A DNA stretch of 64,000 bases from Poseidonia sp. (GTDB taxonomy: Archaea > Thermoplasmatota > Poseidoniia > Poseidoniales > Poseidoniaceae): the NCBI GenBank assembly GCA_965661285.1, contig CBFIDD010000001.1, positions 276,753 to 340,752 on the forward strand, in the 5' to 3' direction. The translations under genes were made by a program, and so were the position numbers. Positions 4,647-34,849 of the stretch are shown piece after piece. The notes under the pieces were generated by a model. The model saw only the letters and a list, made by a program, of their open reading frames with translations, searched no databases and was not told the origin of the DNA. Each line of letters begins with the position of its first letter. Within the stretch, counting starts at the first letter, position 1.

Positions 4647-4750
4647 GTCTGCGTGGCAATGACCGAGACTCTTGAACCCTCGCGAGACGAGCAAGGTTGG
4701 GCTGACCGTTCAACCAATCTTTGATGAGGTTCTCCGGTTTGGTTCGTCTC

Positions 4751-14854: not shown

Positions 14855-15625
14855 TCAGGCACCGCTTCGTTGGGTTTTACACCCAACACCCCAATCCGGC
14901 TCGGCCTCCATCGCCCTGCGTGTTTGTTCGAGAAGCACGTCCTCGGGCGTCGGTGAGGTAGGGGTTGCGGACGTGTACGCCAGCGATAAATGATAACCGC
15001 TTTCCGTCCAATATTGCAATTGGATTTTTGATTTTTCAATTGAAATTTGGTCGGTTTCATTCTCAATTGGAATTTCAATTTCCCGGGGGTTGAGGTGCAT
15101 CCCTTGGCCCAGACATTTTTGCACCGCTTCCTTCCCCGTCCACAAACGGAAAACATGCTCCGGTGCTTTGCGAAGGCGCTCGAGTTCGCTGCCTTTGGCC
15201 ATCATATCGAAGGCGTTCTCTGCGAGGGTTCGGTCAACGGGTTCTGCATCAAGTCCCACCCGAAGAGCAGGGGGTGCGAGGGCGACAAACGCCATGCCGT
15301 CACTGTGAGAAATCGAAACATTCGGTAGCGGCGTTCGTCTCCAAACACCTTGAATGAAATGGATGGAAGGTGCCCTGAACTCGTCCCTTCGTACTTCCAG
15401 CACCGAGAGGTCGCCCACGCCCCACCATTCGAGCGCCTCTCCCAAGAGGCGGCGGCCCGTCAAGTGTTCACAACGACGCTTTCCGGTGACGAACGTCTGA
15501 ACCTCGCTCGCCTGTGCAAGAGGAACCTCCGCAAGGTTCCAGTCCCGCACGGGCATGACAAACACCTCCACCTTTCCATCGGGAGGCGTGAGCCGTTGAA
15601 TCCCCACGCCAGACCCCTCGCTCAT
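14855..15625 (-). CDS. 4'-phosphopantetheinyl transferase (Sfp-type)
   Basis: SISHS, VGLDAE and WTGKEAVQK motifs; ATGA overlap with the megasynthase stop codon. Confidence 0.92.
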   Translation of the reverse strand: MSEGSGVGIQRLTPPDGKVEVFVMPVRDWNLAEVPLAQASEVQTFVTGKRRCEHLTGRRLLGEALEWWGVGDLSVLEVRRDEFRAPSIHFIQGVWRRTPLPNVSISHSDGMAFVALAPPALRVGLDAEPVDRTLAENAFDMMAKGSELERLRKAPEHVFRLWTGKEAVQKCLGQGMHLNPREIEIPIENETDQISIEKSKIQLQYWTESGYHLSLAYTSATPTSPTPEDVLLEQTRRAMEAEPDWGVGCKTQRSGA

Positions 15626-18600
15626 CGCTCCAGTGAAAACCGTTGGTTGTCATCAACCGTAGCCATGGCTTTGAGTTGCAACCCTTTGAGGGCCAACACA
15701 GGAGCATCGTCCTCACCGACGATAACAACGTCGTGAACGGTGATGCCATCACCCGGGGCGCCAACTTGGAGGCTTCGCAACCGAAGCGTTTCATCAGCAT
15801 CGGGAACCCTCAGCATGGTCGACCAGGCGATACCCACGGGAAGGCTGCTGTAGCCAAGCAGTTCCATGGCCACGAGGCCTGCGTTCTGGAAGCCAGCTTC
15901 GATCAGCATCGGGAGCGCTTCGAGCAACACCTGCTCACCGTCAGATTCCAAGGCAAACTGGTCTGTTTCGGGGAGTTGATGTCGCATCAACGCCAGCCCG
16001 TCAATACCTTGTCGGCCTTCATCACCAACGCCTCGAAGCACACCTCCGTGAGATTGGAAGCGTGGGCCGTGGAAGTACCGGTCGTAGATGAAGGAGGCGG
16101 GATGGAGCACATCGCCCGATGGAGGTGTGCCCGTTTCGGGTAATTCATCGACTTCACCTTGCAAGAACGGCCGCAGGTCTTCGTGCTTCTCGATAAGACG
16201 AACAAGCGCCGAGTGGTGTTCTCGCTCGCCGAACACTTCGCCCTTTGAGTTGGCCAAATCTGACACCAAACGACAACGCACCCATGTAAGGTCGCCTTCG
16301 GAGCGTTCGATATTGACCTCAACACGAACCGTCATCGGGCCTTTCAGAAGTTTGACGGGCAGCCCAAAGCTGACCTCTTCAAAACCAGCTAAACATGTGG
16401 TGGGGAGGAGAAGCAGCGAGGATTGGGCAAACATTTCGAGGGCCATCACGCCAGGGTGGTAAGGGACGCCCTCAATGGCATGGTCGGTCAAGAAAGGATG
16501 GTCCTCCTCCGAAAGGGTGGTCTGGGTGACCATGTGCTGGTGTTCTTCCAAGGCCACGACCTTGTCGACGAACGGGAACCGTGTGGGGTCAGCGATGGTG
16601 GCGGCCATGCTCGGAGGCAACTTCAGCGGTGCTTCTCGGAACGAATCAAAGCGGTCCATCACGCCCAGCGTACCGCACCCAAGCACCCTGCGTTTTCCAC
16701 CCTGAAGGGCTTCGGCAACGAAGAGGGCCACGCCGTCCTCAACGGCGAGCGTCTCAATACCTGCAGCAGCGAAGACCGCTTCAATGGAGCCTCGGGTGGC
16801 CATGCCAACATCGCGCCAACCCGTCCAACCGATGGCCACCGCCCTGCAGGCCGTGGTCGCCGTCAGGCGTGCCATTTCAGCATCCAGGACCGAGTTGGCG
16901 GCAGCGTAGTCTGTTTGTCCGCCGTTTCCAAACCGACCGGCCACGCTGGTGAAACAGCAAGCGAAGTCGGGAACGTCCCGTCCCGAAGCCTGAACGGCCG
17001 ACATCAAAGCCCGCCAACCGTCAATCTTCACCCGAACAACCCGATCGAACACCTCGTAGGCTTTGTCGGCAACGAGCTTTGAGTCTTCCAAACCTGCGCC
17101 GTGAACGATTCCGGTGATGGGGCGTCCAAGCGACGCCCCAAGTTGTGCAAGGCCTTCGTGGTCCATCACGTCGATGGAGTGGTAGGTAGCCTGATTGCCG
17201 GTTTGAACGATGGCGTCCAGCGTGAGATAGACATCGCGACTGCGAGTAAAGCGTTGCCACGCAGTATTCCATTCCACCATGGTGACCTTTCCGGTTTCAC
17301 TGGCCTCGATGAGGCGCTCACGCAGGGCGTTCTTCTCCTCAGCGAGTTGGTCTTCGGTCCAGCCAATCCAATCGGCGGTCGATTCGATAAGGGTTGAGCG
17401 ACCAAGCAACTCGAAGTGCGCTCCGGCCTTTGGACTCGCTTGAGCGACGCCGATGATGGACGCAGCCGTCACACCAGAGCCACCGCCGGACACCAACCAC
17501 GTATCTTCGGCTGTCAACGGTTGGACCTCCTCCACAACGTCCTCTGCGAAAGCGACCAGCGACCAGCGGCGTCCGTCTCGGTCAAGACCAATCTCGACTT
17601 CTCCCGCAAGACCGAGCAGGTCCTTTTCGATGCGCTGTGCAGCATCGTCGGCCTCCAAAACAAAGTCAGGATGAAGGTCCAGCGCACGACAACGAAGGTC
17701 GGGACGCTCGAAGGCATACGACTTCGTGATGCCGCTGGCGGCACATTGGATCGCATTGAAGCGGTCGCCCTTGTTTCCGTGCCGTCCGTCGAGAGAAGAA
17801 ACAGAGGCGATAAAGCCGGAGGAATCAGTTGGGATGCTCTGGCCCAATTCCTTGAGAAGGCCAAACCAGCCCTGGGCTGCGAGCGCGATTTGAGAGGATG
17901 GATAGGTGTCTTCGGACCACTGCTCTGATGCGAGTTTCATCGGCGCCATGTGAACCAGGCCTGCAAGGCGAACGCCGGCGAGTTGGGTTGCAATCCAAGC
18001 CAAATGCTCGGGTTGTTCGGGGTCGGCTCGGAACACGGTGCGACCGGCTTCTTCCTGACGAGATGCATCGCGAATGCGGCTCTCAAAGCCAATGCGAACA
18101 GCGCTCAAACCTCGCGCCTCCATGCGCTGACAAAAGGCTTCAGCGATGCCCCAGCCGTCGTCAGACACGACCACCGTGCCTTCGGGATGCAGCGGAGCGG
18201 CCACACCCGGACATCCTTCTATTTCCACTTGCCATCGGCGAGGACCCTCTGCGTGGGTCGAGGACGAGACGGGGGCAGAGATTTCGGCCACCTCATCAGC
18301 AACCTCAACCTCAGGTGCCTTTGGCGTCGGGCTTCCGCCCTGCATCTTCACGATGTAGGCGGTGAAGTGGTTCAGCGTCGGATGGTCTGCGAGCACAAAG
18401 TCTTCGTCAACGGGCAGCGAGAAGCGGTCCCTGATTTCGGCCATGATCTCGGCTTGTTTGACCGTATCAATGCCCAGTTCACCCTCGAGATCCTGGTCCA
18501 ATTCGATGAAATCCGCTGGGTAGCCTGTGTGGTCGACGACGACCGAAACGAGCACACCTTCGATTTCGGGGTGCGATTGGTTGGCCGCTGTGGAAGGCGA

Positions 18601-21600
18601 TGGTGCGGTGGGCGCAGGCGTCGGGGCGGGCGTTGCGGGGGCTGGTGCTGGAGGAGTGGCTCTAGTCGCTGTTTGAGCGGCAGCACCGCCCTGCATGCGC
18701 TGGATGTAGCCAATCATGTGATTCAGTGTCGGGTGGTCGGCCAGGACGAAGTCCTCGTCAACGGGCAGACTGAATTTGTCGCGAATATCAGCCATGATTT
18801 CGGCTTGCTTGACGGTATCAATACCCAATTCGCCCTCGAGGTCCTGGTCGAGTTCAATGAAATCAGCGGGGTAGCCCGTGTGATCAACGACCACGGCGAC
18901 GACCGTGGCGGTCATCTCGGCATCGTCAAGCGGAGCGGCAGGAGCAGAAGCTGCGGGGGCTGATGCTGGAGCTTGAGCCGAAACGGGTTCGGGGACGGCC
19001 AGTGCAGCGACTTCTGCGGGGGTTGATGGTGCGGGCTCGCCACTCGTCATGCGTTGAATGTAGCCGATCATATGGTTGAGGGTGGGGTAGTCGGCGAGCA
19101 CGAAATCCTCGTCGATGGGGAGTCCAAACCTGTCGCGTATGTCAGCCATAATTTCGGCTTGCTTCACCGTATCAATGCCCAATTCGCCCTCAAGGTCTTG
19201 GTCGAGTTCAACAAAGTCAGCCGGATATCCGGTGTGGTTGACCACCACGTCGATCACGGTGGCGACCATGTTCTCGTCGTTCACGACAGTTGGGGCAGCA
19301 GCGGGTACAGCGGGTGCAGCGGGTGCTGCAGGAGCGAGCGAGGATTCCACCGGCGCGGCCGTTGGTGCTGGTTCCGGCTTCGGGGAAGGCTGCATTGGTT
19401 GAGGGGTGGACACTGAGGGCTTGCCCTCCCACGGTGCTGTGTACGGCCATGGCTCGCCTTGGATGCCACCGTGGAGGTTGTTCTCTCCGTCGACATATGC
19501 CACGAGTTTGTTCTGGAGAACCCGCATGACCACATCGTCCGTGCCCGCAAGTCCTCTGGCCCAAGCGAGTAAGCGAGCACCGTCGATACGCTCGCCTTCC
19601 ACTGGCCATCTTCGCATCAACGACAAAGCGATTTGTGAACCAAAGCCAGCTGCAAAGCGCAAACCGTATTCCAATTCGGGATAGTCGCCTCCGGTGGAAA
19701 GGTTGAGGTCGCCCAATTCAGGGTCCTTTTCCTTGTGGTTGGCGATGGGGGGAATGCGTCGTGTCTTCAGGCCGTAGAACATGCTGGCATCTTCGATACC
19801 AACCGCCATCGGATGGCCGGTGAAGCCTTTCGTATTGGCAATCACCAATTTGTTGGTCGATTCACCAAAGGTGTCGCGCAGCGCCTTGACCTCGGATTGG
19901 GCCGAACCGCCACGGGCCGGCGTGTAGGTTTCGTGGGAGAAGAAGACCGTGTTCGGGGCCATGGCGTGTCGGTCAAGCCCCCAGCGTCGCTCCATATCGG
20001 TGATGAAGCTGTTGACCACCTGGCCCACGTGCTCCACATCCAAGCGCGTGCCGTGGTAGGCAGAATTGGCGGTGGTGGAACCGAGGAACTCAGCGATGGG
20101 TTGCACGCCACGCTGTTGGGCCTCTGAGTTGCGCTCCACGACAAAGGCGGCTGCACCCATGCCCAAAATGAGCCCGTTTCGACGGCGATCAAAGGGCAGG
20201 GCGGTTTCTTCGACGACGTTGTTGGTCGCTGCGGCACCCGAGGCGGCAAAGCCGCCAGCGATCCACTCCCAAAGGTCGTCGCCCGTCACATCGTCACCGC
20301 TGATGATGACCACGCGGTCAACCCGGCCGGCGTCAAGCCAGTCCTCTGCAACACCAAAAGCAGCGGTTGCTGAGGCACATGCGAGGTTGATGGTGGTGTT
20401 TGGTCCTCGAATACCGGTGTATTGTGCGAACTGAGAATGGCCCATGTTCAGCGTTTGGAACAGGTAGCGTCGGTCGAACCGACCCTCACCGTCATCGCCG
20501 TTGGTCTTGGCGTGTTTGGACGCCATCTGAAGGCCGGGGAAACAGGATGAGAAGACGATGCCCGTGCGCTCTCGTTGGATTTGAGGCACCTGCCAGTTGC
20601 GAATCAGGCGGAGTCCACCCTTTCCGATTTGTTCAACCGGCGTCAGCGGAATACCTGCGTCTCGCAGCGCCAGCAAACCAGCAGCCACCGCCAGTTGGGT
20701 ACTGATATCCCACGCCACGATGGCTTTCGGGTCAATACCAAATTCTTCGGCGAGGTCAAAGGCACCCTTCAGCCCTGCAAGCTGAGGGATGTCACCAAAC
20801 ACGGTGGCTTGGTCCATGTTGACCGAGCCATCTCTGCCCTTGATGAGGCGAACGATGTTTTTGTCCAAGAGACGCTGCTTGTATTCGTCCGAAACTTCGC
20901 TGATGCAGGTCTCGCCTCGAACCAGTTTCTCAAAGGCGTCTTCCGAGAAGACCCGGTCCATACCGGGCAAACCGAGCGAAACACCGGTGACCACGTACGG
21001 GTCAGCATCCCGCCTCGTGCCCTGTTGAAGCATCGAGACGGTGGAGACCGGCGCCACCTTGAGATTGGAGGGGGCTGAAACCGAGGTCATCGGCGACCAG
21101 GAGGAGGGCGGTGTGCGAACCCAGCGAGCGAGGTCTCCAGCCGTTTGGGCGGCGGTCCCATCAAACTCAGGGTCGATTTCTGCCTCCGAAGCGATGGTGG
21201 CCACGACCCGTTGGACTTCGTCGGCGGTGAGGCCCAAACCCGCTGTGAGCGATACCTGGCCGTGACAAAAGGAGGCAGGATAGCCGCTGTGAGCCGCGAT
21301 TCGGTCGCCGACATAGGCCCTGATGGCGCGGTCGAGTGCAAACTGTGAATCCATCGGGCCGGTATGGACGGTCGCTGCTGGTGCGACTGGGGTCGGGCTT
21401 GCCCCACTTCCAGGCAACGGTCGTGCCCGGGTGCGCAGGGATTCCTGTGCGGCACTGGAGGATGAGGAGGAGAGAGGAGCAGCCTGGCGGGCTTCAAGCG
21501 GTCCCGCCTTGAAAGCGTCCTGGAGCGCATCCGAATCAAGCGAAGGCCAAGATGGAGGGCGACCGGCGAGCGCCAAGGCACCAAGAGCCGTCATGAAACT

Positions 21601-24453
21601 CGCAATACCGCCCTGTTTTGGATGGTTGGTCATGATGGGCACGTGAGGCTGACCCTCGAGGATTTGCATAGCAAACATGGTCAACGCACGCTTTGGACCG
21701 ACCTCAACAAACAAGCGTCCGCCGGCAGCGTACATGGTTTCGATCTGCTTGGTCCATTCTACCGAGGAAGCCATTTGCGGAGCGAGTTTCTCCAAAATGG
21801 CCGTCTTGGCGTCGTCGCCTTTGTCGGGATAGAACGTGCCGTCGACATTGGCGGTGATGGGGACCTCAGGCCAGCGGATTTCCAAGCCCTCCAAGAACCG
21901 GCGAAGCGGTTCGTTTGCTGGGGCTACGATTCGAGAGTGGAAGGCGTGTGAGGTCGCCAAGGCAACGCAGGAGAACCCTTGCGCCTCAAACATCTCCATG
22001 GCGGCCTTGACGGGTTCGGTTTCTCCGGCAATGACCGTCATCTTGGGCGAGTTTTTGTTGGCCGCGATCACATACCCCTCGGTCGCTTCAAGCACCGCCT
22101 CGACCGCCTCATAGGGCGCGGTTACGCTGGCCATCAAGCCCTTGTCGTCGATTTCAACGGCGCCCATTTCCGTTCCGCGCGCTGCGGCGGCGCGCAGTGC
22201 TCCGTCCATATCCAAAATACCAGAGGACATGAGGGCGGCGTATTCACCCAACGAGTGGCCTGCGACCATGTCAGGTGAGTGCCCGTAGGTTTGGAGAGTC
22301 CGCTCAATCGCCAAGTCGGCGGTGAGCATCGCAGGTTGCGTGTATTCGGTCTGCTTGAGTTTGTGCTCTGCTTCTTTCAATTCATCCTTAGAGAGCGCCG
22401 AGCGCAAGACAAATCCTGAGAGGGTCTCGCCTCCCAGCACCTCAACCATCGTTTCATCGGCCTGTTCCCAAACGGCTGCGGGGGCCGTGAAGCGTTGCAC
22501 CAAATCGGCGGTCATCCCGACGTATTGACTCCCCTGCCCGGGGTACATGTGAACGGTTTTTGCCTCGGCCGGCATGGCAGGCTGGTCGGTCAGCAACACA
22601 CCTTGTGCCTGCAAGAAGCCCCACTTCTCGGCGTCCATCATGGCCTGGCTCGCCAGGGTTTGTCGCTTCGCAAATTCGGCCCAAGACGTCGCCACGAGTG
22701 CCATGCGAACCGCTTGATTGGAATCAAAGGCCGAACTCGCGGTTTGCAGCGCCTCAGAGAGTCGGCGACCCTTCGGGTCGTCATCGAACAAGGGGGCGTC
22801 AAACGAGACCTGAGTCAGCTGTGCATGAAGCGCCTCAAGGGAGTCATCGGAGAGCAGCAACACGCCGCCTTCAACGGCTTTGAGCGCCTCGTGCGACATG
22901 GTTGCAGGAATGGACGGGTCAAAAATCGAGGGAGCACTGACCTCCGCTTGCCCGCTGTAGGCCGTCCAACGGGCGTCCCAATCCGAAGCCAACGGCACGT
23001 GATAGTCGGGCTCATAGCCCTCGAGAGCGATGTGGAAGTTCGTGCCACCAAAGCCGAACGCCGAAACACCTGCACGTCGAGGATGGCCTTCGGGCCGTGG
23101 CCATTCAAGCGGTGCCGTGGGAACAAAGAAGGGAATGTTGGACCAGTCCACCGTTGGATTGGGCGTCTCGAAATTCGCACTCGGAGGGATGGTTCGGTGG
23201 TGCAAAGCCATGACCGATTTCATAATGCCCGCAATGCCAGCAGCTGCCTTGAGGTGCCCAATTTGGGATTTGATGGAGCCAACGGCGACGTTGCCGCTCC
23301 CCTCAACGCCCGTCCACAACCTGGAGAGCGTGGAAAGTTCGGTTGCATCACCAACCTTGGTCGACGTCCCGTGAGCTTCCACCAGTTCAACCGTCGATGC
23401 AGGGTAGCCTGCTTGGCTGTACGCTCGGGCAATGGCCTGAATTTGACCTCGCTGGCTCGGGGCCGTGATGCCTTTTCCTCGGCCATCAGAAGAGCCCCCA
23501 ACCCCGCGTATCACGCTGTAGATTTCATCATCATCCCGAATGGCATCGCTCAGCCGCTTCAGCACCAGAACACCTGCACCCTCACCCATGACGAAGCCGT
23601 TGGCTCGGGCGTCAAAAGGCGACGAGTGGGAGGGCGAAAGGGCGCCGATAGCCGAGAACTTCGCAAAGGTTGCAGGGTCCATGGTTCGGTCGGTTGCCCC
23701 TGCGAGCATGACGTCCACCTGGCGTGTTTGAAGCAGGCGACACGCATCGAGAACTGCAGCCATCGAGGAGGCGCATGCGGCGTCCATGGCGTGATTGGGC
23801 CCTTGCAAATCCAGCAGATTCGCGACACGTCCCGAAACCACGTTGGCCAGTTCACCGGGCATGGTGTCTTCATCCACCCGAGGCGTGCCCTCAAGAATCG
23901 CTTCGGCAAACTCGTCTGCTTTTCCTTCGGGCAGACCGTGTTGCTTCGCCACGTTCGTTGTGTGGTTGGACCACACGCGAATGTTCGACAAGTTGCGGTT
24001 TTCTCCACCAAGCGCATTGGCGAAGACGACCCCGGTTTTTGTTCGGTCAATGTCGCGTGAGTCCCCATCATAACCAGCGTGCTCGATGGCGTCTGCGGAA
24101 ACGGAAACGGCCCACAACTGACACGGATCGATTTGCGGCAATGTTCCGGGTGGTTGACGCCACCTGCGCCAGTCAAACTCAGCATCGGAGACCAATGCGC
24201 CAATCTTGGCGTAGGTGTACCCTTCGGTGTGTTGCCCGGGGCCGCCCTCTTTCCAGAAATGGTTGATTGGACCGGGCCAACGCCCCTCTGGAAGCGGTCG
24301 GATGCTCACTTTGGCGTCGAGAATGTTTTGCCAAAACGCATTGATATCCGGCGCATCTGGCATGAGGGCGCCAAGACCGATGACGGCAATCGGCTCGAAG
24401 GGCCCCTGCTCGATCCCCTCGCATGGTTTGCCGTCTGCTGTCGTCAACGTCAT
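15622..24453 (-). CDS. Iterative type I polyketide/fatty-acid megasynthase: KS1-AT-pseudoACP-KS2-ACP-ACP-ACP-KR-DH
   Basis: KS1 DAACASS/EAHGTST/KSQIGHL; AT PGQGSQ, GHSLG, HAFH; KS2 NLACASA/SHETYT/GHP; 3x ELGIDTVKQAEI; KR GGGSGVT, HGAG, YAAAN; DH HAIEGVPYHP; SD GAGGTG before the ATG. Confidence 0.95.
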   Translation of the reverse strand: MTLTTADGKPCEGIEQGPFEPIAVIGLGALMPDAPDINAFWQNILDAKVSIRPLPEGRWPGPINHFWKEGGPGQHTEGYTYAKIGALVSDAEFDWRRWRQPPGTLPQIDPCQLWAVSVSADAIEHAGYDGDSRDIDRTKTGVVFANALGGENRNLSNIRVWSNHTTNVAKQHGLPEGKADEFAEAILEGTPRVDEDTMPGELANVVSGRVANLLDLQGPNHAMDAACASSMAAVLDACRLLQTRQVDVMLAGATDRTMDPATFAKFSAIGALSPSHSSPFDARANGFVMGEGAGVLVLKRLSDAIRDDDEIYSVIRGVGGSSDGRGKGITAPSQRGQIQAIARAYSQAGYPASTVELVEAHGTSTKVGDATELSTLSRLWTGVEGSGNVAVGSIKSQIGHLKAAAGIAGIMKSVMALHHRTIPPSANFETPNPTVDWSNIPFFVPTAPLEWPRPEGHPRRAGVSAFGFGGTNFHIALEGYEPDYHVPLASDWDARWTAYSGQAEVSAPSIFDPSIPATMSHEALKAVEGGVLLLSDDSLEALHAQLTQVSFDAPLFDDDPKGRRLSEALQTASSAFDSNQAVRMALVATSWAEFAKRQTLASQAMMDAEKWGFLQAQGVLLTDQPAMPAEAKTVHMYPGQGSQYVGMTADLVQRFTAPAAVWEQADETMVEVLGGETLSGFVLRSALSKDELKEAEHKLKQTEYTQPAMLTADLAIERTLQTYGHSPDMVAGHSLGEYAALMSSGILDMDGALRAAAARGTEMGAVEIDDKGLMASVTAPYEAVEAVLEATEGYVIAANKNSPKMTVIAGETEPVKAAMEMFEAQGFSCVALATSHAFHSRIVAPANEPLRRFLEGLEIRWPEVPITANVDGTFYPDKGDDAKTAILEKLAPQMASSVEWTKQIETMYAAGGRLFVEVGPKRALTMFAMQILEGQPHVPIMTNHPKQGGIASFMTALGALALAGRPPSWPSLDSDALQDAFKAGPLEARQAAPLSSSSSSAAQESLRTRARPLPGSGASPTPVAPAATVHTGPMDSQFALDRAIRAYVGDRIAAHSGYPASFCHGQVSLTAGLGLTADEVQRVVATIASEAEIDPEFDGTAAQTAGDLARWVRTPPSSWSPMTSVSAPSNLKVAPVSTVSMLQQGTRRDADPYVVTGVSLGLPGMDRVFSEDAFEKLVRGETCISEVSDEYKQRLLDKNIVRLIKGRDGSVNMDQATVFGDIPQLAGLKGAFDLAEEFGIDPKAIVAWDISTQLAVAAGLLALRDAGIPLTPVEQIGKGGLRLIRNWQVPQIQRERTGIVFSSCFPGLQMASKHAKTNGDDGEGRFDRRYLFQTLNMGHSQFAQYTGIRGPNTTINLACASATAAFGVAEDWLDAGRVDRVVIISGDDVTGDDLWEWIAGGFAASGAAATNNVVEETALPFDRRRNGLILGMGAAAFVVERNSEAQQRGVQPIAEFLGSTTANSAYHGTRLDVEHVGQVVNSFITDMERRWGLDRHAMAPNTVFFSHETYTPARGGSAQSEVKALRDTFGESTNKLVIANTKGFTGHPMAVGIEDASMFYGLKTRRIPPIANHKEKDPELGDLNLSTGGDYPELEYGLRFAAGFGSQIALSLMRRWPVEGERIDGARLLAWARGLAGTDDVVMRVLQNKLVAYVDGENNLHGGIQGEPWPYTAPWEGKPSVSTPQPMQPSPKPEPAPTAAPVESSLAPAAPAAPAVPAAAPTVVNDENMVATVIDVVVNHTGYPADFVELDQDLEGELGIDTVKQAEIMADIRDRFGLPIDEDFVLADYPTLNHMIGYIQRMTSGEPAPSTPAEVAALAVPEPVSAQAPASAPAASAPAAPLDDAEMTATVVAVVVDHTGYPADFIELDQDLEGELGIDTVKQAEIMADIRDKFSLPVDEDFVLADHPTLNHMIGYIQRMQGGAAAQTATRATPPAPAPATPAPTPAPTAPSPSTAANQSHPEIEGVLVSVVVDHTGYPADFIELDQDLEGELGIDTVKQAEIMAEIRDRFSLPVDEDFVLADHPTLNHFTAYIVKMQGGSPTPKAPEVEVADEVAEISAPVSSSTHAEGPRRWQVEIEGCPGVAAPLHPEGTVVVSDDGWGIAEAFCQRMEARGLSAVRIGFESRIRDASRQEEAGRTVFRADPEQPEHLAWIATQLAGVRLAGLVHMAPMKLASEQWSEDTYPSSQIALAAQGWFGLLKELGQSIPTDSSGFIASVSSLDGRHGNKGDRFNAIQCAASGITKSYAFERPDLRCRALDLHPDFVLEADDAAQRIEKDLLGLAGEVEIGLDRDGRRWSLVAFAEDVVEEVQPLTAEDTWLVSGGGSGVTAASIIGVAQASPKAGAHFELLGRSTLIESTADWIGWTEDQLAEEKNALRERLIEASETGKVTMVEWNTAWQRFTRSRDVYLTLDAIVQTGNQATYHSIDVMDHEGLAQLGASLGRPITGIVHGAGLEDSKLVADKAYEVFDRVVRVKIDGWRALMSAVQASGRDVPDFACCFTSVAGRFGNGGQTDYAAANSVLDAEMARLTATTACRAVAIGWTGWRDVGMATRGSIEAVFAAAGIETLAVEDGVALFVAEALQGGKRRVLGCGTLGVMDRFDSFREAPLKLPPSMAATIADPTRFPFVDKVVALEEHQHMVTQTTLSEEDHPFLTDHAIEGVPYHPGVMALEMFAQSSLLLLPTTCLAGFEEVSFGLPVKLLKGPMTVRVEVNIERSEGDLTWVRCRLVSDLANSKGEVFGEREHHSALVRLIEKHEDLRPFLQGEVDELPETGTPPSGDVLHPASFIYDRYFHGPRFQSHGGVLRGVGDEGRQGIDGLALMRHQLPETDQFALESDGEQVLLEALPMLIEAGFQNAGLVAMELLGYSSLPVGIAWSTMLRVPDADETLRLRSLQVGAPGDGITVHDVVIVGEDDAPVLALKGLQLKAMATVDDNQRFSLER
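18342..19275 (-). repeat. Three tandem near-identical ACP domains separated by Ala/Pro-rich linkers
   Basis: HTGYPADF.ELDQDLEGELGIDTVKQAEIMA.IRD.F.LP.DEDFVLAD.PTLNH three times (~19275-19048, ~18915-18693, ~18560-18342). Confidence 0.93.
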
Positions 24454-24462
24454 GTGAACACC

Positions 24463-25254
24463 TCAATTCATGATGCTTTCCGGCACCATCGTGATGGAAT
24501 AGCCCGCATCAACGTAAACGCATTGACCTGTGACGCCCGCTGAGAGTGGACTGGCAAGCCACAAGGTTGCACCGGCCACATCGGCCTGACTGACGTTTCT
24601 TCGGAGCGGTGCGTTCGCTTCAACGTGATCTAAAATTCGGTCAAATCCAGGTATGCCGCTGGCAGCGATGGTCCGTATGGGCCCGGAGGAAATGGCATTG
24701 ACACGATGACCCTCTGGCCCGAGATGGCAGGCGAGTTCACGTGTCCAGCACTCCAAAGCCGCTTTTGCCATGGACATGATGCCGTAACTGGGAACGAATC
24801 GATTGGAAGCCGCATACGTCAGTGTGATGGTTGAGGAACCGGGATTGAGGTAGGGGAGGGCGTGCTTGAGGCAGCGCTGAAGCGAATTCGCCGAGATGGT
24901 CATGGCGGTGTTGATGTCGTCGTCTTCAACAAAAAGAATGGGCCGGTCAAAACACGAGCGAGGCGCAAACCCGATGGCGTGGACCAAGATGTCCGCCTTC
25001 TTACCGGGGTGGTCTGCGGCAAAGGCGGTGAAAAATTCCTGCGTGGTGCTGTCCGAAGCGACGTCGAGCGGATAGAAACCACCGATGGCGGGAAGTTCGT
25101 CCTTGAGTTTGAACACACGACTCATGAATCGCTTCTGGTACCCCAGATAGAGCGTGACCCCAGCCGCTGCCAATTGCTTGCAAATCGCCCATGCAATGGA
25201 GTCTTCGCTTGCCACTCCAAACACAAAGGCCGTTTTTCCTTCCAGTCCAAGCAT
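24463..25254 (-). CDS. fabI: Enoyl-ACP reductase (FabI family)
   Basis: GVASEDSIAWAI, HAIGFAP, YGIMSMAK (YxxMxxxK), VNAISSGPIRT, VDAG; ends 9 nt before the megasynthase start. Confidence 0.93.
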   Translation of the reverse strand: MLGLEGKTAFVFGVASEDSIAWAICKQLAAAGVTLYLGYQKRFMSRVFKLKDELPAIGGFYPLDVASDSTTQEFFTAFAADHPGKKADILVHAIGFAPRSCFDRPILFVEDDDINTAMTISANSLQRCLKHALPYLNPGSSTITLTYAASNRFVPSYGIMSMAKAALECWTRELACHLGPEGHRVNAISSGPIRTIAASGIPGFDRILDHVEANAPLRRNVSQADVAGATLWLASPLSAGVTGQCVYVDAGYSITMVPESIMN

Positions 25255-25371: not shown

Positions 25372-26469
25372 TCAAAGGTCGGCGAAAACGTCGTCAAATT
25401 CGTCTTCTTCGTCCTCAGGGAACAAATCGTCCAGATCGGAGAGGTCCAAATCATCCAAGTCGTCATCCTCTGGCTCGTCCTCCACATCAACGGGAGGCAC
25501 ATACATCGGTTGAGCGTTGGCTCGTCGACGAATAGTTCGAGCCAAAGCCACAACAAAGATCAGGCCGAAAAGAACGGCAGCCCCGATGCTCCCGTACATC
25601 ACGAGGGTGTCTTTGTCAACCTCTTCCAAGCCGCCGCCAAGTCCGCCAGCCGTGTTGCTGACCTCGAGTTGAATGGAGATGCTGGTCTCGCTCACGGGGG
25701 CTTCGCCATCGTTCTCACTTTCGGCTTGGAAAATAACCTGGAGCCGTTCCTCAGCGGCCACTTCCGAGGGCGCCCTGATGGTCAATTCGCGCACCGTTGA
25801 AACGCCGCCTTCGGTGACGTCTTCAGCCACGAACGTGCCGCTAGGGAAGGTGAAACCAGCCTGCTCAAGTTCGGCGGCATTGGTGATGGAAACACGAATC
25901 TTATCGTCGTCGTTACCGTTGTTTTGGAATTGGAACGTGATGGCGACTTCATCGCCCTGAGCCATGGTTCGTGTGCTCTTGTCAGAAATGTCAAGGTCCA
26001 CCATACCAAAGGTCGCTACGTTGAGGTCGCCGTTCACCGTTGCGTTTGACGAGAGCCCTTCCGGCCAGTCAAGCATCCCGACATTGGTGACCGTAGCGGT
26101 CAAGGTGAATTCGTAGGAGACCTCGGCTGAAAGGCGGGTTTGACCGTTGAAGGTGACTTTGAAATCTTCTTCTTCATCAGGACCGAGGTCAAAGGAATCC
26201 TCCTCCAACATCATGTCGACTTCAAGACCGTCCCACTCCTTTTCGACAGCGATGGTTTCTTGGAACGAGGAGGGGTTCCTGACGGTGCAGGTGATCTCCA
26301 CCACGGGTTCACTGAGCGGATGAACATCGAGTTCGGGCTGTTTTTCGTCGCAGTCGATCTCAACGCCGGGCGCCGTGGGAGCTTGAGCTTGGACAGAGCC
26401 TGCGAGACTGCACAGCAAGAGCGCCACCACAACCCATCCAAAGCGGCGTGAAGCTAGCATGGCCCTCAT
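25372..26469 (-). CDS. Secreted Ig-like protein with C-terminal TM and acidic tail (choice-of-anchor T-like, tentative)
   Basis: Signal peptide, beta-rich domains with N.GN..D motif, TM, Asp/Glu-rich tail; start moved to MRAMLASRR. Confidence 0.7.
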   Translation of the reverse strand: MRAMLASRRFGWVVVALLLCSLAGSVQAQAPTAPGVEIDCDEKQPELDVHPLSEPVVEITCTVRNPSSFQETIAVEKEWDGLEVDMMLEEDSFDLGPDEEEDFKVTFNGQTRLSAEVSYEFTLTATVTNVGMLDWPEGLSSNATVNGDLNVATFGMVDLDISDKSTRTMAQGDEVAITFQFQNNGNDDDKIRVSITNAAELEQAGFTFPSGTFVAEDVTEGGVSTVRELTIRAPSEVAAEERLQVIFQAESENDGEAPVSETSISIQLEVSNTAGGLGGGLEEVDKDTLVMYGSIGAAVLFGLIFVVALARTIRRRANAQPMYVPPVDVEDEPEDDDLDDLDLSDLDDLFPEDEEDEFDDVFADL

Positions 26470-26539
26470 GGTCCCCTGTGGTTTCTCTTTCATCAATGTG
26501 ATGGGGTGTTGTCGGCAAAAATATGCGTTCATAAACACC

Positions 26540-27409
26540 TCATTCTTCTCCGTAGACAACGGCCGGCAGGACGCTGTGCGTGTTCCACATGACGTCTTCG
26601 TCAACGCCTGCAGCCAGCAATTGTTGGGTCCGTTTCGGCACGGTTTTGGGGCCCAGCACGGCACCGGGACGACGAGGGTCATCCATGTAATCGGTTTCGA
26701 GGAAAAACCCGTTTTTCGCCATGCGATGGGTTTCAACCAACCGTTCCAAAGCGCCTTTTCCGCACAACACGCTGGGCGTGAGGCCGTGGGTGTGTTCAGC
26801 ACGAACATCGGGGGGAGAATAATGGCGCACCAGTTTTCTCAAATCCATCCCTTGACGAAGCGCTCGACGAGACAAATCGCCGTAGGTGTCCTCTCGCTCG
26901 CCTTCCACGTGAAGTTGAAGTGGCAATCCCTCTTGAGCAGCAAGGTGCATCGTTTCATCGAGAAGTTGGTTTGAAAGGTCCCAAATTTCGTCCGAAACAG
27001 GCCAATGAGGTCGCCCCACCTCGCCGATGGCGTGAGCCTGCCCCTCGTGGACAAACCCAAGGGCGGCTTCAATGGAATGGCGGTAATTCTCAATCGCACG
27101 CTCCTTTCCAGCATCCCCTTCGTTGGAGACCCAGCGCTCGAATTGATGGGCGAAGGCCGCAGGATGCGGGCCGAGAACGACACGTACGCCAAGGCCAACG
27201 TCCTCTCGTACCGACGCCGCCATCCGAATCGTGTCGGCGTAGGCGTTGCGATGGCCTTCAAAGGTCTCGGGAGGTGCGGAAAAATCAGGGCAGTGAACGA
27301 GCACGAGGTCGGTTCCGCCCACGCGCTGAAAAGAGCGTGCTGCATCAAGGAACAATCCCTTTCGGTTGAGGTGAAAGTGGTTGTCCAAAATCGGACCGTC
27401 ATAGACCAT
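26540..27409 (-). CDS. TatD-family metal-dependent hydrolase/nuclease (archaeal type)
   Basis: DNHFH, AIGEVGRPH, LQLH, LETDYMDDP.RPG motifs. Confidence 0.88.
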   Translation of the reverse strand: MVYDGPILDNHFHLNRKGLFLDAARSFQRVGGTDLVLVHCPDFSAPPETFEGHRNAYADTIRMAASVREDVGLGVRVVLGPHPAAFAHQFERWVSNEGDAGKERAIENYRHSIEAALGFVHEGQAHAIGEVGRPHWPVSDEIWDLSNQLLDETMHLAAQEGLPLQLHVEGEREDTYGDLSRRALRQGMDLRKLVRHYSPPDVRAEHTHGLTPSVLCGKGALERLVETHRMAKNGFFLETDYMDDPRRPGAVLGPKTVPKRTQQLLAAGVDEDVMWNTHSVLPAVVYGEE

Positions 27410-28775: not shown

Positions 28776-31700
28776 TCACTGGTTGTTGACCCAGTCTTGC
28801 AGCGACTCAACGGTCCACCCTTGGTCAAAGTAACCCTGGATTTCCTCCTGCGTCCACTGCGGGAAGGTTTGCATGGCGCGGGCCATTTCCGGATGAACAT
28901 CAGCAGGAATCTCTGCGAGGACCTTGCTCTCCGTGTATCCGACATCGTCGTCATCTTCGTATTCATACTCGTCATCGAGCATGGACGCACCGCCACCACG
29001 GCGGGCAAGCACGAGAACAAGCGTGCCGAGGACACCGATAACGACCACGAGAAGCACCACGATGAGCAACATGTTGCCCGAGTCTTCCTCGGCCTGAACC
29101 TTAACGTTGAACACGTCCGCCCATTGGGGTTGCGAACCATCGTAGATGTTCTCGCTGGTACCGTTGAGGCTGATGGTGTAGTACATGCCCGTGGTCTGGG
29201 TGGCGAATGGTGCGAGGGTCACTTCGACCCAATCACTCACTTCCTGGATGCCCAGTTCGGGCGTTGCGACCGTGTCTTCCACAACAGGCGTTCCACCGTC
29301 GGTGACCGACTTGATGACCAACTCGGCAACGCCGGCCATCGAACCGGTGTTCTTGACCTTGATTCGCAGTTTCATGCTCTCGCCAACTCGCGGGTCTTCG
29401 CTGAGAAGAACGTCTTGAATCTCAAATGTCGCCTTTTCTTCGATGAAGGTGTACTGTGACTCATGCTGGGCTTGTGCCGTCGAGATGATAGGAAGGATGG
29501 ACCCGCCCTCTTGAGGTCCTCCACCGAATCGAACGGTCGAACCGGCAGAGTCAGCGCCGGACACCCAGAACACGAGCGTGGGCTGCTGCGTTTCGTCCAC
29601 TTCGGCATCGAACACACGTGGTTCACTGTCGGAGAGCGGCCAAAGGTCCAAGCAGGTGGCCGTTGCGAGATAGCCGCCGTCCAAGGTGCTGAGCGAGAGG
29701 GTTTCGGAAGAGGGTTCGAATCCGAAATACTCGGCGTATTCGGACCATGGCGTGTAGTCGATGGTGTTGCTGTAGAACATCCAGTTGACCTGGAGGTCGC
29801 CGGGGAAGATGGCTTCCTGCTCTTTGATTTGCAATTGAATGTCCACGCAGTGGTAGTTGGCGGTTGACAACGTGTTGGCGATGATGCGGCCATCTGCACC
29901 TGCTGGCAGGGCTCCCTTCTCAGCAAGCCATGTGTTGGACAACACTTCCGGAGGCGTTCGGTCGACCTTCAACGTGAACTCGCCGCATCCATAGGAGGTC
30001 GAGGTAGCACAAAGCGAAGATGTGACATCCACTGCACCGTTTGGCAGACTGTAATCTTCTTCAGCATCACATGAATCAGCTTCATCGCTTGGCGGACACA
30101 ACCTGTAGGTGTACTGATATTCATTGGTGAACACAGGGGCCGTTATGTTGATGTCGAAAACACCGCCTGAGAAGGTGTGGTAAATGGTCTCACCGGGATA
30201 CTGGATGTAGCCCTTGCTGCTGTCATCCAAGGCGTCAAGGCGAATGATTTCCATGGTCATTTCAATTTCTGGGTTGATGTAGACGCTGTTGTAGATTCCA
30301 TCTCGGAATGCATACTGACCAGTGAATCGAATTGTATCTCCTGCGTAGACGAATCCTTGCCGGACATCGCTGGTGAACGGTTCACTCGCGTCTTCAAACA
30401 TCGGCGTAACCATGAGGTTGTTGACCTCGTCCGTTCTGAAATCAAGTTGCATGATATCGGCATAACGCCAAATTTGGATGTAGCGTCCCGGCACACCAGA
30501 AAGCATCGTGTAGAGCGGGTTGTCAAGGTCCTGCATCTGCAATTTGGGTTCGATGTCCTTGCCGTCCATACCGACAATCCCCCAATCGATGCGAATAGGG
30601 ATGTTGAGGATGAAGTCCGACTCAAACGGGTCGATGAGGGCCGTGCCGTCCATGGTGAGCATGGTTGGACCCACATCACCGTCGTAAACAATGTCCATGT
30701 GTGGGCTGTCTGTCCAGGCCGTCTGATTTCGTGGTGAGTACCAAATCGTCATGTCGTCTGCTGTTTTATCGAGGTTAAGCTGGAAGAAATCTACGTCTCG
30801 CCAACCGTTGTCATCGCTGGCCTCCAAAATCAGGTGGTAGACGTTTCCGGCATACATGGTCTGGTTCCACGTTCCGTCCCATCGCAATTCGTTGGCGTTC
30901 AGGAACGGATTGCCTTTCGAATCCTCGATGAAGAAGTTGCGAATCACCGGATTCTTTGACGACATGGATACATACGAGACTCGGTCGTTGTCAAATCCGG
31001 GTCCACCACCGTCGATGGTGTTCCCTGCGAGATCGTAGCCTTCAATCCAAATTGAGACCTTGCCTTCGAGTCCTTCGTTTGCAATGTCGTTGTATTGACC
31101 GGTGTAGTTGGCCGTTGGTACCTCGCCATCGCCGTTCAACGTGATGATGGTGTATTCATTCGCATCGGGGAGACCGTCGCCGTTAGCGTCGTGGTCGTTT
31201 TCAACCCAAAGGTGCATGTCCAAGGTTGCGGGTGGGTTTGGTATGTCCTGACTGGACATTCGAATTTGTTGCGCACTGTTTGGCACGACCCATGTATCAT
31301 CGAGAAGAGTTCTCCAGTTTGAATCAACATTGGGGTCCGTCCCCGCACTCAACACCTGGAGGTCAAGGAGGTTGGGCTCGTAGGTATCGATCATGACGTC
31401 AAAGGGGATGGCACACGTCTCGTCAGGGTTGTAAATTGAGGGCGGGCAGAGCAAATCACCGTCTTCATAACCTCGAAGGGCAAATCGGTAGGTCTCGCTA
31501 CCAGCTGCGGTACCAAGGTCGACATTCCAGTTGAAATTGCCACCAATCACACCCGAGCGATTCGCCACCTCTTCCCATTCCACTGTGATGTTGCCGTCGG
31601 TGGTGTTGACATGCTTCAGCTCGAGAACGAGGAAGTAGGAGGTAGGGTCGGGAGAAACGGTGAGGTCTTCAAGCCGAATTTCACCGACGAGGTTGATTTG

Positions 31701-34700
31701 TCTTCCAGATTGGGCACCTGTCAGGGCTTGAGGCTGACCAATGCCGTTTTGCAGTTCAAAACTGGTGATACCCGCATCGTTCTCGACAGCGTTGCCCACC
31801 AAGGGGTCCAACAGGGCCGCATCGGGCAGGCCGTTAACACCGTTGGTTGCGGTGAGGCCGGCGTAGAGGCGAACGGCAGAGGTATCGTCCCAAGAGGGGT
31901 TGACCCTGAAGTGCCAGGTGATTTCCTTCCCGTTGGTGATGTCAACCGCAGAGGATGTCGCTTCAAGTTGTACGTGGTCGAGATCATCCATTTCAGAGAA
32001 TCGGGTGAAATCGTTCCATTCAAATCCGAGGGAATTTGCTCCGTATTCAAACATCAACGAGGCCCCGGAAAGCGCAGCACCCGTCAGTGGATCAACGGTG
32101 TGGGTGGTCACGATCTCGTAGATTTCTCCGTTTGGATAAAGGCCGTTCGGATTATCGGTGATCGTCAGTGAATTGTCATATCCCGTGCTTGAGGAAATGC
32201 TCAGGTCGCTGAGAGCGATGCCACCACCGGAACTTGTGGACACAGCGATGGGTACCTCGGCTGTTGCTCCACCGGTCCACAACGCAACGCCCTGATTGAG
32301 TTCGATGTCAAAACCATCGGCCTCGTTGAGCACCGTTTCGTAATCGTAAACAATATCCAGGTCAACAAGGTTGAGCGAAGTACCCGATGACGCGTTGGGT
32401 GAATCGACCATAAAGCGGAACATCACCCAGTTGCGGCCAAATTCATCTTGATGGTTACCGGCCACCGAGGGGTTGTTGAGCAACGAATTGATCGCACCTA
32501 TGAAGTCCATTTGAGGGCTCAGAATTTCCTGTGTGATGGTGGTGCTGTTTGGCATATCACCCAACACAACGGACTGAGAGCCGGTCATCAATTTCAGTTC
32601 AAAACCTTCTTCCGCATCAGAATTGGAATTGATGGAAACCTGGTCCATTCCAAAATCAGCAGCCGTTACCTCTGCTCCCTCCGGCAAGAGGAAGAAACCG
32701 CCCGTGGCTTGACCGTTGACGCCGAGGGTAAGGGTCGCCTCATCGGCGGCGAGGTTTACACCGTCAACCGTCCCCGCCACGAAGGTGGTTTGTCGGCCGA
32801 ACATGTCAAACGCAGGCTCGGCCAAACCAAACTCAACATCCCCGTCGTTTGCAACATCGATCATCAAATCCTTAGCGTGGTGGGCAAATTCCAAATCAAA
32901 CCAGATTCCTGCGACATCGCAAGGATTCTGGTAGGACGTAAGGGAGTAAAATCCGAGGATGGGGTCGTCAAGGACCTTCTTGACGCCGTCTTGAACCGTG
33001 ATGGGGCTGGATGAGCCGGTTGGCACGATTTCAATATCGGGCGATTCACTGCACGAATCTTCGATCATCGGCGTAATGGAGGTGATCGGATGACTGAACT
33101 TGCTACGCTCCAACGTGGAAGCGTAGGCCTGTTGCTCAACCAGCGGAACGTAAAACATGGGCTCGCCTCCACCCATGGTCTGCCAAACGCCGTTGGAGAT
33201 CTGTGGGGAACCCGGCATGGTCGCGTTGAACCCGGTCCCCACCCGGGTTCCGATACTGTAGCCGTGGAACACTGGAGAAGTCAAACGCTCGGGGCCGGAA
33301 TCGAAATTGAATCTGAATTTGACATTGGGGTAGTCCGATGAATCGATCTCCCAAAGTTCGATGATGTCGCCCGAAAGCCCGGACATGACCGTTCCGTCTT
33401 TGCCCACAACGAGGTTGTCATTCGCATCGAGAACATCCACGGTCAGCGTTGCGGAAGCCGTTGTTTCTGCTTCCATGGTCAGCACACCATACCCGTTGGG
33501 GTGGTTCAGGCCACCGGCGGCCGATGGCAGCATACCGCGGACCGTCATGCTTCCGTTTTGGGGAAGAAGTTCTCCCAATCTGAAGTTGTCGACATACCAG
33601 CCGGACATGTTGTCATCAACGTTCAGTGCCGTGGAGGCTGTGTGGTCCATCACAAACCGGATTTGGACGTAGTCCCCGATGTATTGGTCCAAGTTGACCG
33701 CAATGTTGGCCCAGCCGGACGGGTTCTGTGCGGTCGTGGAGGAACCGGCGATTCCCCAACCCCACTGACTGCTGCTCAACTGCAGCCCATCGCATTGACG
33801 ATTGATACGATTGTCTTGGTTCCAAGTGGAGCCTGTGCCCTGGGCGTAATTTTTCCCGAAGACAAGCCCCGTACTGTTTTGTTGGTCAATGGGCAGATAG
33901 TTGAATCCACTGGTGTCGGGTGGGAAGGATCCCGGGACAGGGGAGGAACGGATTTGGAGATAGCCGCAATCCCTGAAAATGAGCGAGTTTTGAGCAGAGC
34001 CCGTTGAGGTCTCCAGATTCCACCACGAGTCGAAATACGCCGTGCTGCTCTTGAGGAGCGGATCGACATGGAGTTCGGCTGTCGTCATTCCAAGCGTATA
34101 AGGGTCATAGGTCGGGGGCGTGTTTCCATCGGGGTTGTCGTCCGTGTAGTTGGTGTCGGCGATGTTGGTGCCCCAACATTCCATGCCCGAAGCACAGCCA
34201 CCCGGCACATCGTTTGGCCCAAGGAAGCCGTGCTCCCAGCCAGGACCGGTGGAGGGCATCTCTGCGGAGTCGGTTGAATCCGAGAATCCTCCATTGGTCC
34301 CCTCAAAGTCTGTTAGGAAACCTTCCGAAACCAACGATACAGGTGTCGCTTGGCTACCGTCATCGTAAGTGAAGAGTGCCTCGTCCGAGAATTCTGTCAA
34401 TTTGCTGTTGTAGTCGGGGTTCCACACGCGATAATTCCCGGACCCATCGAGGTCGGTTTGGGTATCAATTCGGGTTTGGTGGCCATGTTCGACGGCGTTG
34501 GTTTTGATTTTCACACTCGCAGAGGTGACCGTCTCGCCGTCCGGGAGGGCGACCGTACCGTCGACGATGTTTTCGAGCAAGGCGCCTTCGCGGATTTCAA
34601 CATCGGCCTCGGATGACCCGTCGGCAAAGGTGGTGACATTGGCCGAAGCCATCGGAGCAAGAAGCATCAGCAGCATGAGGAAAATTGGCGTAGCTTTACG

Positions 34701-34718: not shown

Positions 34719-34849
34719 GGTGTCACCTGCACCTGTGCGAAGGTTTGCCCCCATAAAATCTCGTCGCTTTCCCGATACCGTACCGTATTCCTCTTCCTTT
34801 GCTTACTGTTGTGAACATGAGTTATGAGGGTGGACCTTGTGGAACGAGC

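Follow-up and report, generated by a model that had tools for sequence, protein, structure and literature searches.

Within a 64,000-nucleotide stretch of a Poseidonia sp. genome (contig CBFIDD010000001.1, positions 276,753 to 340,752; this whole stretch is called the window here), a single open reading frame (ORF) at 15622-24453 on the reverse strand encodes a megasynthase of 2943 amino acids that contains two ketosynthase (KS) domains, KS1 and KS2. Judged from its sequence, the gene comes from a Marine Group II archaeon and belongs to the "Type R" synthases for fatty-acyl chains (secondary lipids), which are Pfa-like, iterative and of type I, and KS2 is probably a complete, active second ketosynthase that shares the elongation cycles with KS1. 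In the passages of Shulse and Allen that treat Type R, the type is defined by one pfaA homologue with the order KS-MAT-CLF-ACP(3-6)-KR, where CLF denotes a chain length factor, ACP an acyl carrier protein and KR a ketoreductase, and by a downstream phosphopantetheinyl transferase (PPTase); its hosts are Koribacter, Solibacter, Elusimicrobium and Roseiflexus, and its product is uncharacterized (Shulse and Allen, 2011, PLoS One 6:e20146, PMC3098273). The two-KS layout is therefore that of an already catalogued and widespread family with an uncharacterized product, and the design itself is not new.

The assignment to Type R rests on gene architecture and genomic neighborhood. Pfam and NCBIfam scans of the translation give the order KS1-AT-(decayed ACP)-KS2-ACPx3-KR-DH, where AT is an acyltransferase and DH a dehydratase, and the Type R succession KS1-AT-KS2-ACPx3-KR(-DH) is thus contained in a single ORF. 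An Sfp-type PPTase gene (PF01648, 2.2e-10) lies directly downstream at 14855-15625 on the reverse strand. In a tree built without the other Pfa types (A-Q, S, T), KS1 and KS2 each fall in one clade with their counterparts from Roseiflexus (L067) and Korobacteraceae (L063). Membership in PfaA itself is not indicated: the megasynthase scores 868.6 bits on the PfaA model TIGR02813, under the cut-off of 1010.1, and its neighbors are FabI and PPTase genes rather than pfaB, pfaC or pfaD. It is the sole match to this model in its own genome, while none of 14 control genomes reached the cut-off and 11 of them had sub-threshold matches.

A preliminary description of this DNA had reported two apparently intact KS domains in one iterative module, and both catalytic sets were recovered. 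KS1 (residues ~16-490; 22984-24408, reverse strand; PF00109 4.6e-69, PF02801 1.6e-40), a domain of the type I polyketide synthase (PKS)/Pfa type, has Cys227 in DAAC (23773-23775), His361 in AHGT (23371-23373), and Lys395 and His400 in SIKSQIGHL. KS2 was placed at residues 1146-1625 (19579-21018, reverse strand), close to the ~19610-21000 first proposed, and is a divergent, complete KAS-fold ketosynthase by Pfam, NCBIfam, FabF alignment, AlphaFold2, Foldseek and phylogeny. On the same strand it carries Cys1359 in NLAC (20377-20379), His1507 in SHETYT (19933-19935) followed directly by Glu1508 (19930-19932), Lys1542 (19828-19830) and His1547 (19813-19815) in NTKGFTGHP, and Phe1604 in a GFGS gating loop. 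A thiolase fold with aligned Cys, His, Lys and His was found for both domains, by alignment and, for KS2, also by its structural model and Foldseek.

The resemblance of KS2 to ketosynthases is far beyond chance. Scanned alone, the domain matches PF00109 (6e-16) and PF08545 (1.3e-5), with PF02801 below cut-off at 0.0052. Among solved chains its best match is FabF (95 bits, E 3e-26), and in an HMMER alignment to Staphylococcus aureus FabF (2gqd) its Cys, His, Lys and His fall on the FabF catalytic residues. Among solved structures, KS1 is closest to KS domains of type I PKSs (7zma, 418 bits), and the two domains match each other at only 26-27 bits. KS2 had initially been called divergent and the more FabF-like of the pair. 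Its divergence and its FabF best matches bear this out, yet on the fabF model TIGR03150 KS1 scores 336 bits and KS2 137.7 bits; KS1 is the closer of the two to FabF, and KS2 is a lineage of its own.

Conservation of the KS2 cysteine and histidines in homologues had been named beforehand as a check on two intact domains, and they are conserved almost without exception. An HMMER pass with KS2 over 1.84 billion cluster representatives (50% identity) found a KS2-like domain in 8800 representative proteins at E <= 1e-3, 546 of them at E <= 1e-30. Residues were counted in the best 150 representatives plus the query (151 proteins), of which 125 have a full-length KS2: the Cys is kept in 124/125, the Lys and both His in 125/125 each, and the Phe of the GFGS loop in 124/125. 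The catalytic residues are likewise invariant (59/59) in a second alignment, A2, with the Roseiflexus, Korobacteraceae and Bryobacteraceae loci included; 51 of its 59 sequences are translations of loci in the genomes of named organisms. The Glu that follows the first His, giving HET, is present in 125/125 KS2 domains, whereas KS1 has HGT in 70/71, as do 7 bacterial FabF proteins.

KS2 is also strongly constrained. Domain-wise comparison of the window protein with 27 full-length genes, 15 archaeal and 12 bacterial, ranked KS2 alone as the best conserved in 22 cases; it shared first place in 3 and ranked lower in 2. At the closest locus KS2 is 99% identical against 94% for KS1, and in bacteria the values are 50-54% and 43-51%. 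The closest KS2 homologues (83-100% identity) belong to Candidatus Poseidoniales / Poseidonia sp. For KS2, dN/dS across the four closest loci is 0.006-0.031, compared with 0.023-0.028 for KS1 and ~0.10 for the decayed-ACP region; the ratios are rough as synonymous sites are saturated (dS 0.9-3.2).

Structural modeling, proposed at the outset together with a KS phylogeny, agrees with a ketosynthase that is complete. An AlphaFold2 model of KS2 built from the 59-sequence alignment (mean pLDDT 91.5, pTM 0.92) shows the full KAS II fold, and its sole uncertain part is a four-residue loop past HETYTP (model residues 367-370). The first Foldseek match is Escherichia coli FabF (6olt_A, E 9e-32, TM by target 0.89), and the matches above rank 43 are FabF/KAS II chains only, the human mitochondrial ketosynthase included. 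The predicted KS2 homodimer has the canonical KS interface and scores 0.88 against 0.00 for the best control, with contact agreement between runs of >=93% and partner pLDDT of >=90; of proteins solved as pairs, 20 of 30 attain the mark that it passes, against 1 of 23 of those solved as single chains. The result may reflect the model's memory of solved FabF dimers.

Phylogenetic analysis, with seven motif-checked FabF rows as outgroup (L088, L091 and L095 fell outside the motif filter and were left out), separates three groups: KS2 (17/17 rows, SH-aLRT 100), the seven bacterial FabF proteins, and a PKS-type clade with KS1. The KS2 stem is the longest in the tree. The KS1 and KS2 subtrees are congruent, each with Poseidoniales, Chloroflexota, Acidobacteriota together with Calditrichota and Actinomycetota, and Myxococcota, and the pair was therefore inherited as one unit.

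These data bear directly on the label CLF. The passages of Shulse and Allen on the Type R "CLF" carry no comment on its cysteine (PMC3098273). Neither of two marks of a CLF is seen in KS2. Loss of the active-site Cys, to Gln or another residue, is contradicted by Cys1359 and by its retention in 124/125 and 59/59 sequences; a tandem with KS1 as a close paralogue is contradicted by the intervening AT and decayed ACP and by the separate clades. A CLF-like domain of the expected kind does occur elsewhere in the family. A KS-like domain of the PKS type stands in tandem behind KS1 in 14 of the 151 representatives and lacks both His in 9 of 12 scored (C-F-K-Y or S-Y-K-Y), while KS2 past the AT is intact; in the tree these partners group with KS1 in the PKS-type clade and KS2 lies outside it. 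A degenerate tandem partner coexists with an intact KS2, and KS2 is therefore not the CLF equivalent. By sequence, it is not a true CLF despite the label of 2011.

The tandem type is illustrated by nine larger relatives (P0222, P0227, P0241, P0242, P0253, P0258, P0259, P0264 and P0268) with the order ER-KS-KS'-AT-KS2-ACPn-KR-DH(-PPTase), where ER is an enoyl reductase, and with three KS-fold domains per protein. KS' reads C-F-K-Y in eight of them and S-Y-K-Y in P0241, and one of the clusters is named Desulfobacterales.

The carrier domains have an unusual feature of their own. Three tandem ACPs (18334-19311, reverse strand; three stretches of PF00550), each with the motif LGIDTV, have Thr1762 (19168-19170), Thr1880 (18814-18816) and Thr1997 (18463-18465) at the position of the phosphopantetheine Ser, and this Thr aligns on the DS serine of solved ACPs. 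Across 80 loci, Thr occupies the position in 120/121 archaeal ACPs (with one gap) and in 112/112 bacterial ACPs downstream of KS2. Among the representatives, Thr is found in 310 of 324 ACP motifs and Ser in the other 14; in six proteins part or all of the ACPs have Ser. The family may use a Thr-linked cofactor and a matching PPTase, as this pattern would suggest. A further, decayed carrier-like segment (GLGLTADEV; 21124-21396, reverse strand), aligns with the ACP motif in the AT-KS2 interval, where ~200 residues have no Pfam or NCBIfam family match. The segment itself has no Pfam match and no conserved Ser or Thr; in 44 Poseidoniales loci its attachment column holds D22, E12, A3, P3, S2, T1 and N1. 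A proper ACP stands at this position in three bacterial loci (L048, L052, L054).

The remaining domains and the flanking genes supply the other functions of a reducing synthase. The AT, joined to KS1 by a linker (residues 626-945; 21619-22578, reverse strand; PF00698 4.4e-37, fabD model TIGR00128 4.4e-57 for the AT), has GHSLG at residue 732 and the motif HAFH, which we take to mark malonyl specificity. The ketoreductase region extends over 16774-18006 on the reverse strand (PF08659 4.1e-23, residues 2410-2548; the N-terminal limit is estimated), and the PKS-type dehydratase over 15625-16626 on that strand (PF21089 2.1e-9, residues 2627-2717), with HAIEGVPYHP as its HxxxGxxxxP motif. A Pfam scan of the gene found no thioesterase or other release domain. 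Directly upstream, at 24463-25254 on the reverse strand, lies a FabI-like enoyl-ACP reductase gene (PF13561 3e-69), which reaches up to 220 bits on the FabI NCBIfam models, every one below cut-off. Of 45 Poseidoniales loci, 40 have the FabI-like gene and the other 5 end inside the megasynthase gene; the PPTase is kept in all 33 of the 45 that extend beyond that gene's 3' end.

Further out in the window, all but one on the reverse strand, are a 180-amino-acid protein with two TATA-binding-protein repeats (PF00352; 27419-27961), which fits an archaeal host, a "choice-of-anchor T" protein (25372-26808), a 1992-amino-acid ORF near the synthase with no Pfam match (28776-34754), and, on the forward strand at 4721-10342, a 1873-amino-acid protein with an S8 subtilase domain. 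The last three are probably large surface proteins.

A scan of species-representative genomes recovered at least 582 loci, and locus-level counts were made in the best 80 of the 582. These comprise 45 Poseidoniales loci together with Myxococcota, Acidobacteriota, Chloroflexota (Roseiflexus sp., Kouleothrix sp.), Actinomycetota and Calditrichota, and every locus long enough to display it has the order KS1-AT-KS2-ACPn-KR-DH. Named members of the protein clusters also include Polyangiaceae, Bradymonadaceae/Lujinxingiaceae, Desulfobacterales and one Asgard archaeon. In a protein atlas, the clusters nearest KS2 include some labelled as mostly eukaryotic (diatoms, Zoopagomycota; 0.93-0.95) with the same PF00109+PF08545 signature, a lead that KS2-type domains may occur in eukaryotes as well.

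Within the order, a KS2 search (E <= 1e-30) of 201 sampled Poseidoniales genomes gave matches in 128, and in 46 of the 61 genomes that are >=90% complete. The window's family has the gene in 95/99 genomes, a second family in 2/2 and a third, sister family in 30/99. Genera of the third family are wholly with or wholly without it; six have it in 0 of 4-15 genomes and tend towards smaller genomes (1.3-1.6 Mb). The gene is near-universal in one Poseidoniales family and dispensable in others.

The genome context differs between hosts. In the window's own genome (1.98 Mb, 93% complete) no KAS-type KS was found beyond KS1 and KS2, save one 20-bit thiolase-like match, FabH was not found, and PP-binding domains occur nowhere but in the megasynthase, which has three. 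With no FabH, no other KAS-type KS and no other PP-binding domain in the genome, self-priming of the synthase is required. The genome also has three carboxyltransferases and three matches to PlsC-type acyltransferases, to which the synthase could feed acyl chains. Bacteria that carry the megasynthase also own normal FabF genes. In their loci, an acyl-CoA-dehydrogenase-like gene (~560-670 amino acids) was found in 5 of 10 upstream ORFs scanned (L058, L061, L067, L070, L079), and of 18 loci with scanned downstream ORFs, 10 have acetyl-CoA carboxylase there, either as a single-chain, eukaryote-style carboxylase of ~1800 amino acids with an ACC_central domain (L063, L064, L065, L079) or as separate carboxyltransferase and/or biotin-carboxylase pieces (L066, L067, L070, L071, L076, L078). 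These carboxylase and dehydrogenase neighbors point to ordinary de novo chain building.

From the above we infer catalytic activity of KS2, its homodimerization and a sharing of cycles with KS1. KS2, the condensing domain that typifies the family, most likely homodimerizes and most likely extends the chains on the neighboring ACP array by decarboxylative Claisen condensation. Within one iterative machine, the cycles of elongation would then be divided between KS2 and the PKS/Pfa-type KS1, which is fused to the AT, much as they are between the KS pair of polyunsaturated fatty acid (PUFA) synthases. With KR, DH and the trans-acting FabI reducing each cycle, a straight and mostly saturated acyl chain built from malonyl units is the probable product. 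A division of labor between the two ketosynthases, as the preliminary description had proposed, is plausible, and we consider that interpretation reasonable and the surprise attached to it overstated. Its premise about PUFA synthases was correct in that a Cys-less CLF exists there and incomplete in that, in the parts of a recent account that concern these enzymes, two genuine KS domains are also present and serve chains that differ in length or structure (Ogata et al., 2025; PMC11962503). A two-KS, Pfa-like iterative system is thus a documented norm and not an anomaly.

Several observations weigh against this assignment of KS2. The product of Type R is uncharacterized according to Shulse and Allen (PMC3098273). 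A single KS is enough in most highly reducing iterative PKSs, at least as stated in the portion of Ogata et al. (2025; PMC11962503) that treats them, and the need for two is unexplained. KS2 is greatly divergent: its 137.7 bits on TIGR03150 stand against a cut-off of 493.75, and it also falls below the cut-off on PF02801, Pfam's C-terminal KS model. The invariant Glu of HET is unexplained and could signal an altered chemistry, as could the low-confidence loop that follows it. Finally, the S36T variant of E. coli ACP is described in the relevant passage of one study as impossible to modify and non-functional (PMC3340395); with Thr at the attachment site, loading of the carriers is therefore putative in this family.

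Other roles for KS2 can be envisaged. The lack of FabH in the genome and the malonyl-type look of the AT, if the HAFH rule is taken to apply, would suit a dedicated, FabH-like initiation KS that accepts a short primer, possibly from CoA, and carries out the first condensation before KS1 takes all later rounds. The region around the KS2 cysteine matches the FabH model PF08545 (25.4 bits against a 24-bit cut-off), a match shared by relatives and by the nearest atlas clusters, and some bacterial relatives retain an ACP directly before KS2. However, the His-His pair, Lys and GFG(S) loop of KS2 are those of elongating KAS I/II enzymes and not the His-Asn of FabH. Single-KS relatives prime themselves by decarboxylating malonyl-ACP, which makes a dedicated primer KS unnecessary. 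The status of KS2 as the most conserved domain also fits a domain in steady use rather than one that acts once per chain, although this is a weak argument, and on balance we think an initiation role unlikely, if a serious alternative. Much less probable still is a CLF-like, non-condensing partner that would pair with KS1 as a heterodimer to set chain length or would act solely as a malonyl-ACP decarboxylase. The name used in the Type R passages of Shulse and Allen (2011; PMC3098273) and the precedent of KS-CLF pairs in PfaC speak for such a partner, as does the obligate dimerization that is general among KS-fold domains. Against it stand the retained cysteine, the AT that separates KS2 from KS1 where a tandem would be expected, the survival of KS2 in relatives whose KS1 has a degenerate tandem partner, and the position of KS2 outside the clade formed by KS1 and these partners. 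The solved chain 6riw_A, deposited as "ORF10" (1014 amino acids), which we take to be a PfaC KS-CLF didomain, matches KS1 at 254 bits and is not within the best 60 of 78 KS2 matches, where FabF stands on top; the relation of KS2 to PfaC is judged on these PDB scores only.

A special terminal reaction, the third option of the preliminary description, would be either head-to-head coupling of two long chains, of the Pks13/OleA kind, or delivery of the completed chain to an acceptor, with a very long, branched or otherwise unusual lipid as the product. It is favored by the His-Glu-Thr that replaces HGT in every KS2 (125/125), by the distinct, deep clade with the longest stem, and by a gene that has no thioesterase or other release domain. 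We hold it to be highly improbable: nothing specific indicates a two-chain condensation, the catalytic set and gating loop of KS2 are those of an ordinary elongating KS, and the acetyl-CoA carboxylase and acyl-CoA-dehydrogenase-like genes conserved beside bacterial copies belong to ordinary chain building. A broader and rather speculative proposal is that KS2 represents an unrecognized "HET" class of KS, invariably set between an AT and an ACP array, which, together with the Thr carriers, forms the sole ACP-dependent lipid machinery of Marine Group IIa (MGIIa), performs a novel step and yields unusual acyl lipids. Were this so, the HET active site would perform a step foreign to ordinary KS enzymes, such as acyl-CoA priming or terminal coupling, and MGIIa archaea would make ester-type or otherwise unusual acyl lipids with a bacterial-derived, self-contained factory.

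A second elongating ketosynthase, the role we favor for KS2, is of interest for its host as well. The prevailing view is that archaea have no ACP-dependent machinery for fatty acids. In this member of Marine Group II, whose archaea have not been cultured and abound in the surface ocean, the only KS and ACP domains found in a 93%-complete genome reside in one gene. On the present alignments, what is labelled a "CLF" in this family is better regarded as a second KS that is under strong constraint and apparently active. The results on the second KS and on the Thr carriers give clear hypotheses for expression of the synthase. A literature search, whose coverage left out most subscription journals, found no paper describing the gene in Poseidoniales or Marine Group II, and the term "KS-AT-KS" was not met in it.

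Comparison with known systems places the archaeal synthase among several related designs. With FabF/KAS II (E. coli; PDB 6olt, 2gfv, 1kas), KS2 shares the fold, the aligned Cys-His-Lys-His, a GFG-type gating loop and the interface of the dimer model. It differs in having ~23% identity, HET for HGT and a longer loop thereafter, in being embedded in a megasynthase, and in forming a separate deep clade. With the CLF (KS-beta) of type II PKSs and PfaC it has in common the position of a second KS-fold domain in a Pfa-like system and the historical label. Unlike a CLF, KS2 keeps the Cys and both His, is not adjacent to KS1, and coexists with a degenerate tandem KS in 14/151 proteins. PfaABCD and the thraustochytrid DHA synthase resemble the archaeal enzyme in being iterative, in their ACP array and in a PfaA-like KS-AT...ACPn-KR-DH core. 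The PUFA synthases divide their cycles between two active KS domains, according to the sections of PMC11962503 on these systems, and the archaeal protein has two that appear intact. In contrast to the PUFA synthases, the archaeal locus lacks a PfaC-type KS-CLF didomain, a Pfam match for a FabA-type DH and a PfaD-type ER, and its second KS lies in the same polypeptide and in a lineage apart from the PKS-type clade. The closest counterpart is bacterial Type R, in which the genes of Roseiflexus (L067), Korobacteraceae (L063) and Bryobacteraceae (L062) share KS2 and the megasynthase domain order with the archaeal gene. Apart from its host, a member of the Poseidoniales, the archaeal copy differs in its ER partner, a FabI gene, where many of the bacterial genes are preceded by an acyl-CoA-dehydrogenase-like gene and followed by acetyl-CoA carboxylase, and in a KS2 without the ~40-residue helical insert found in that of most bacterial copies.

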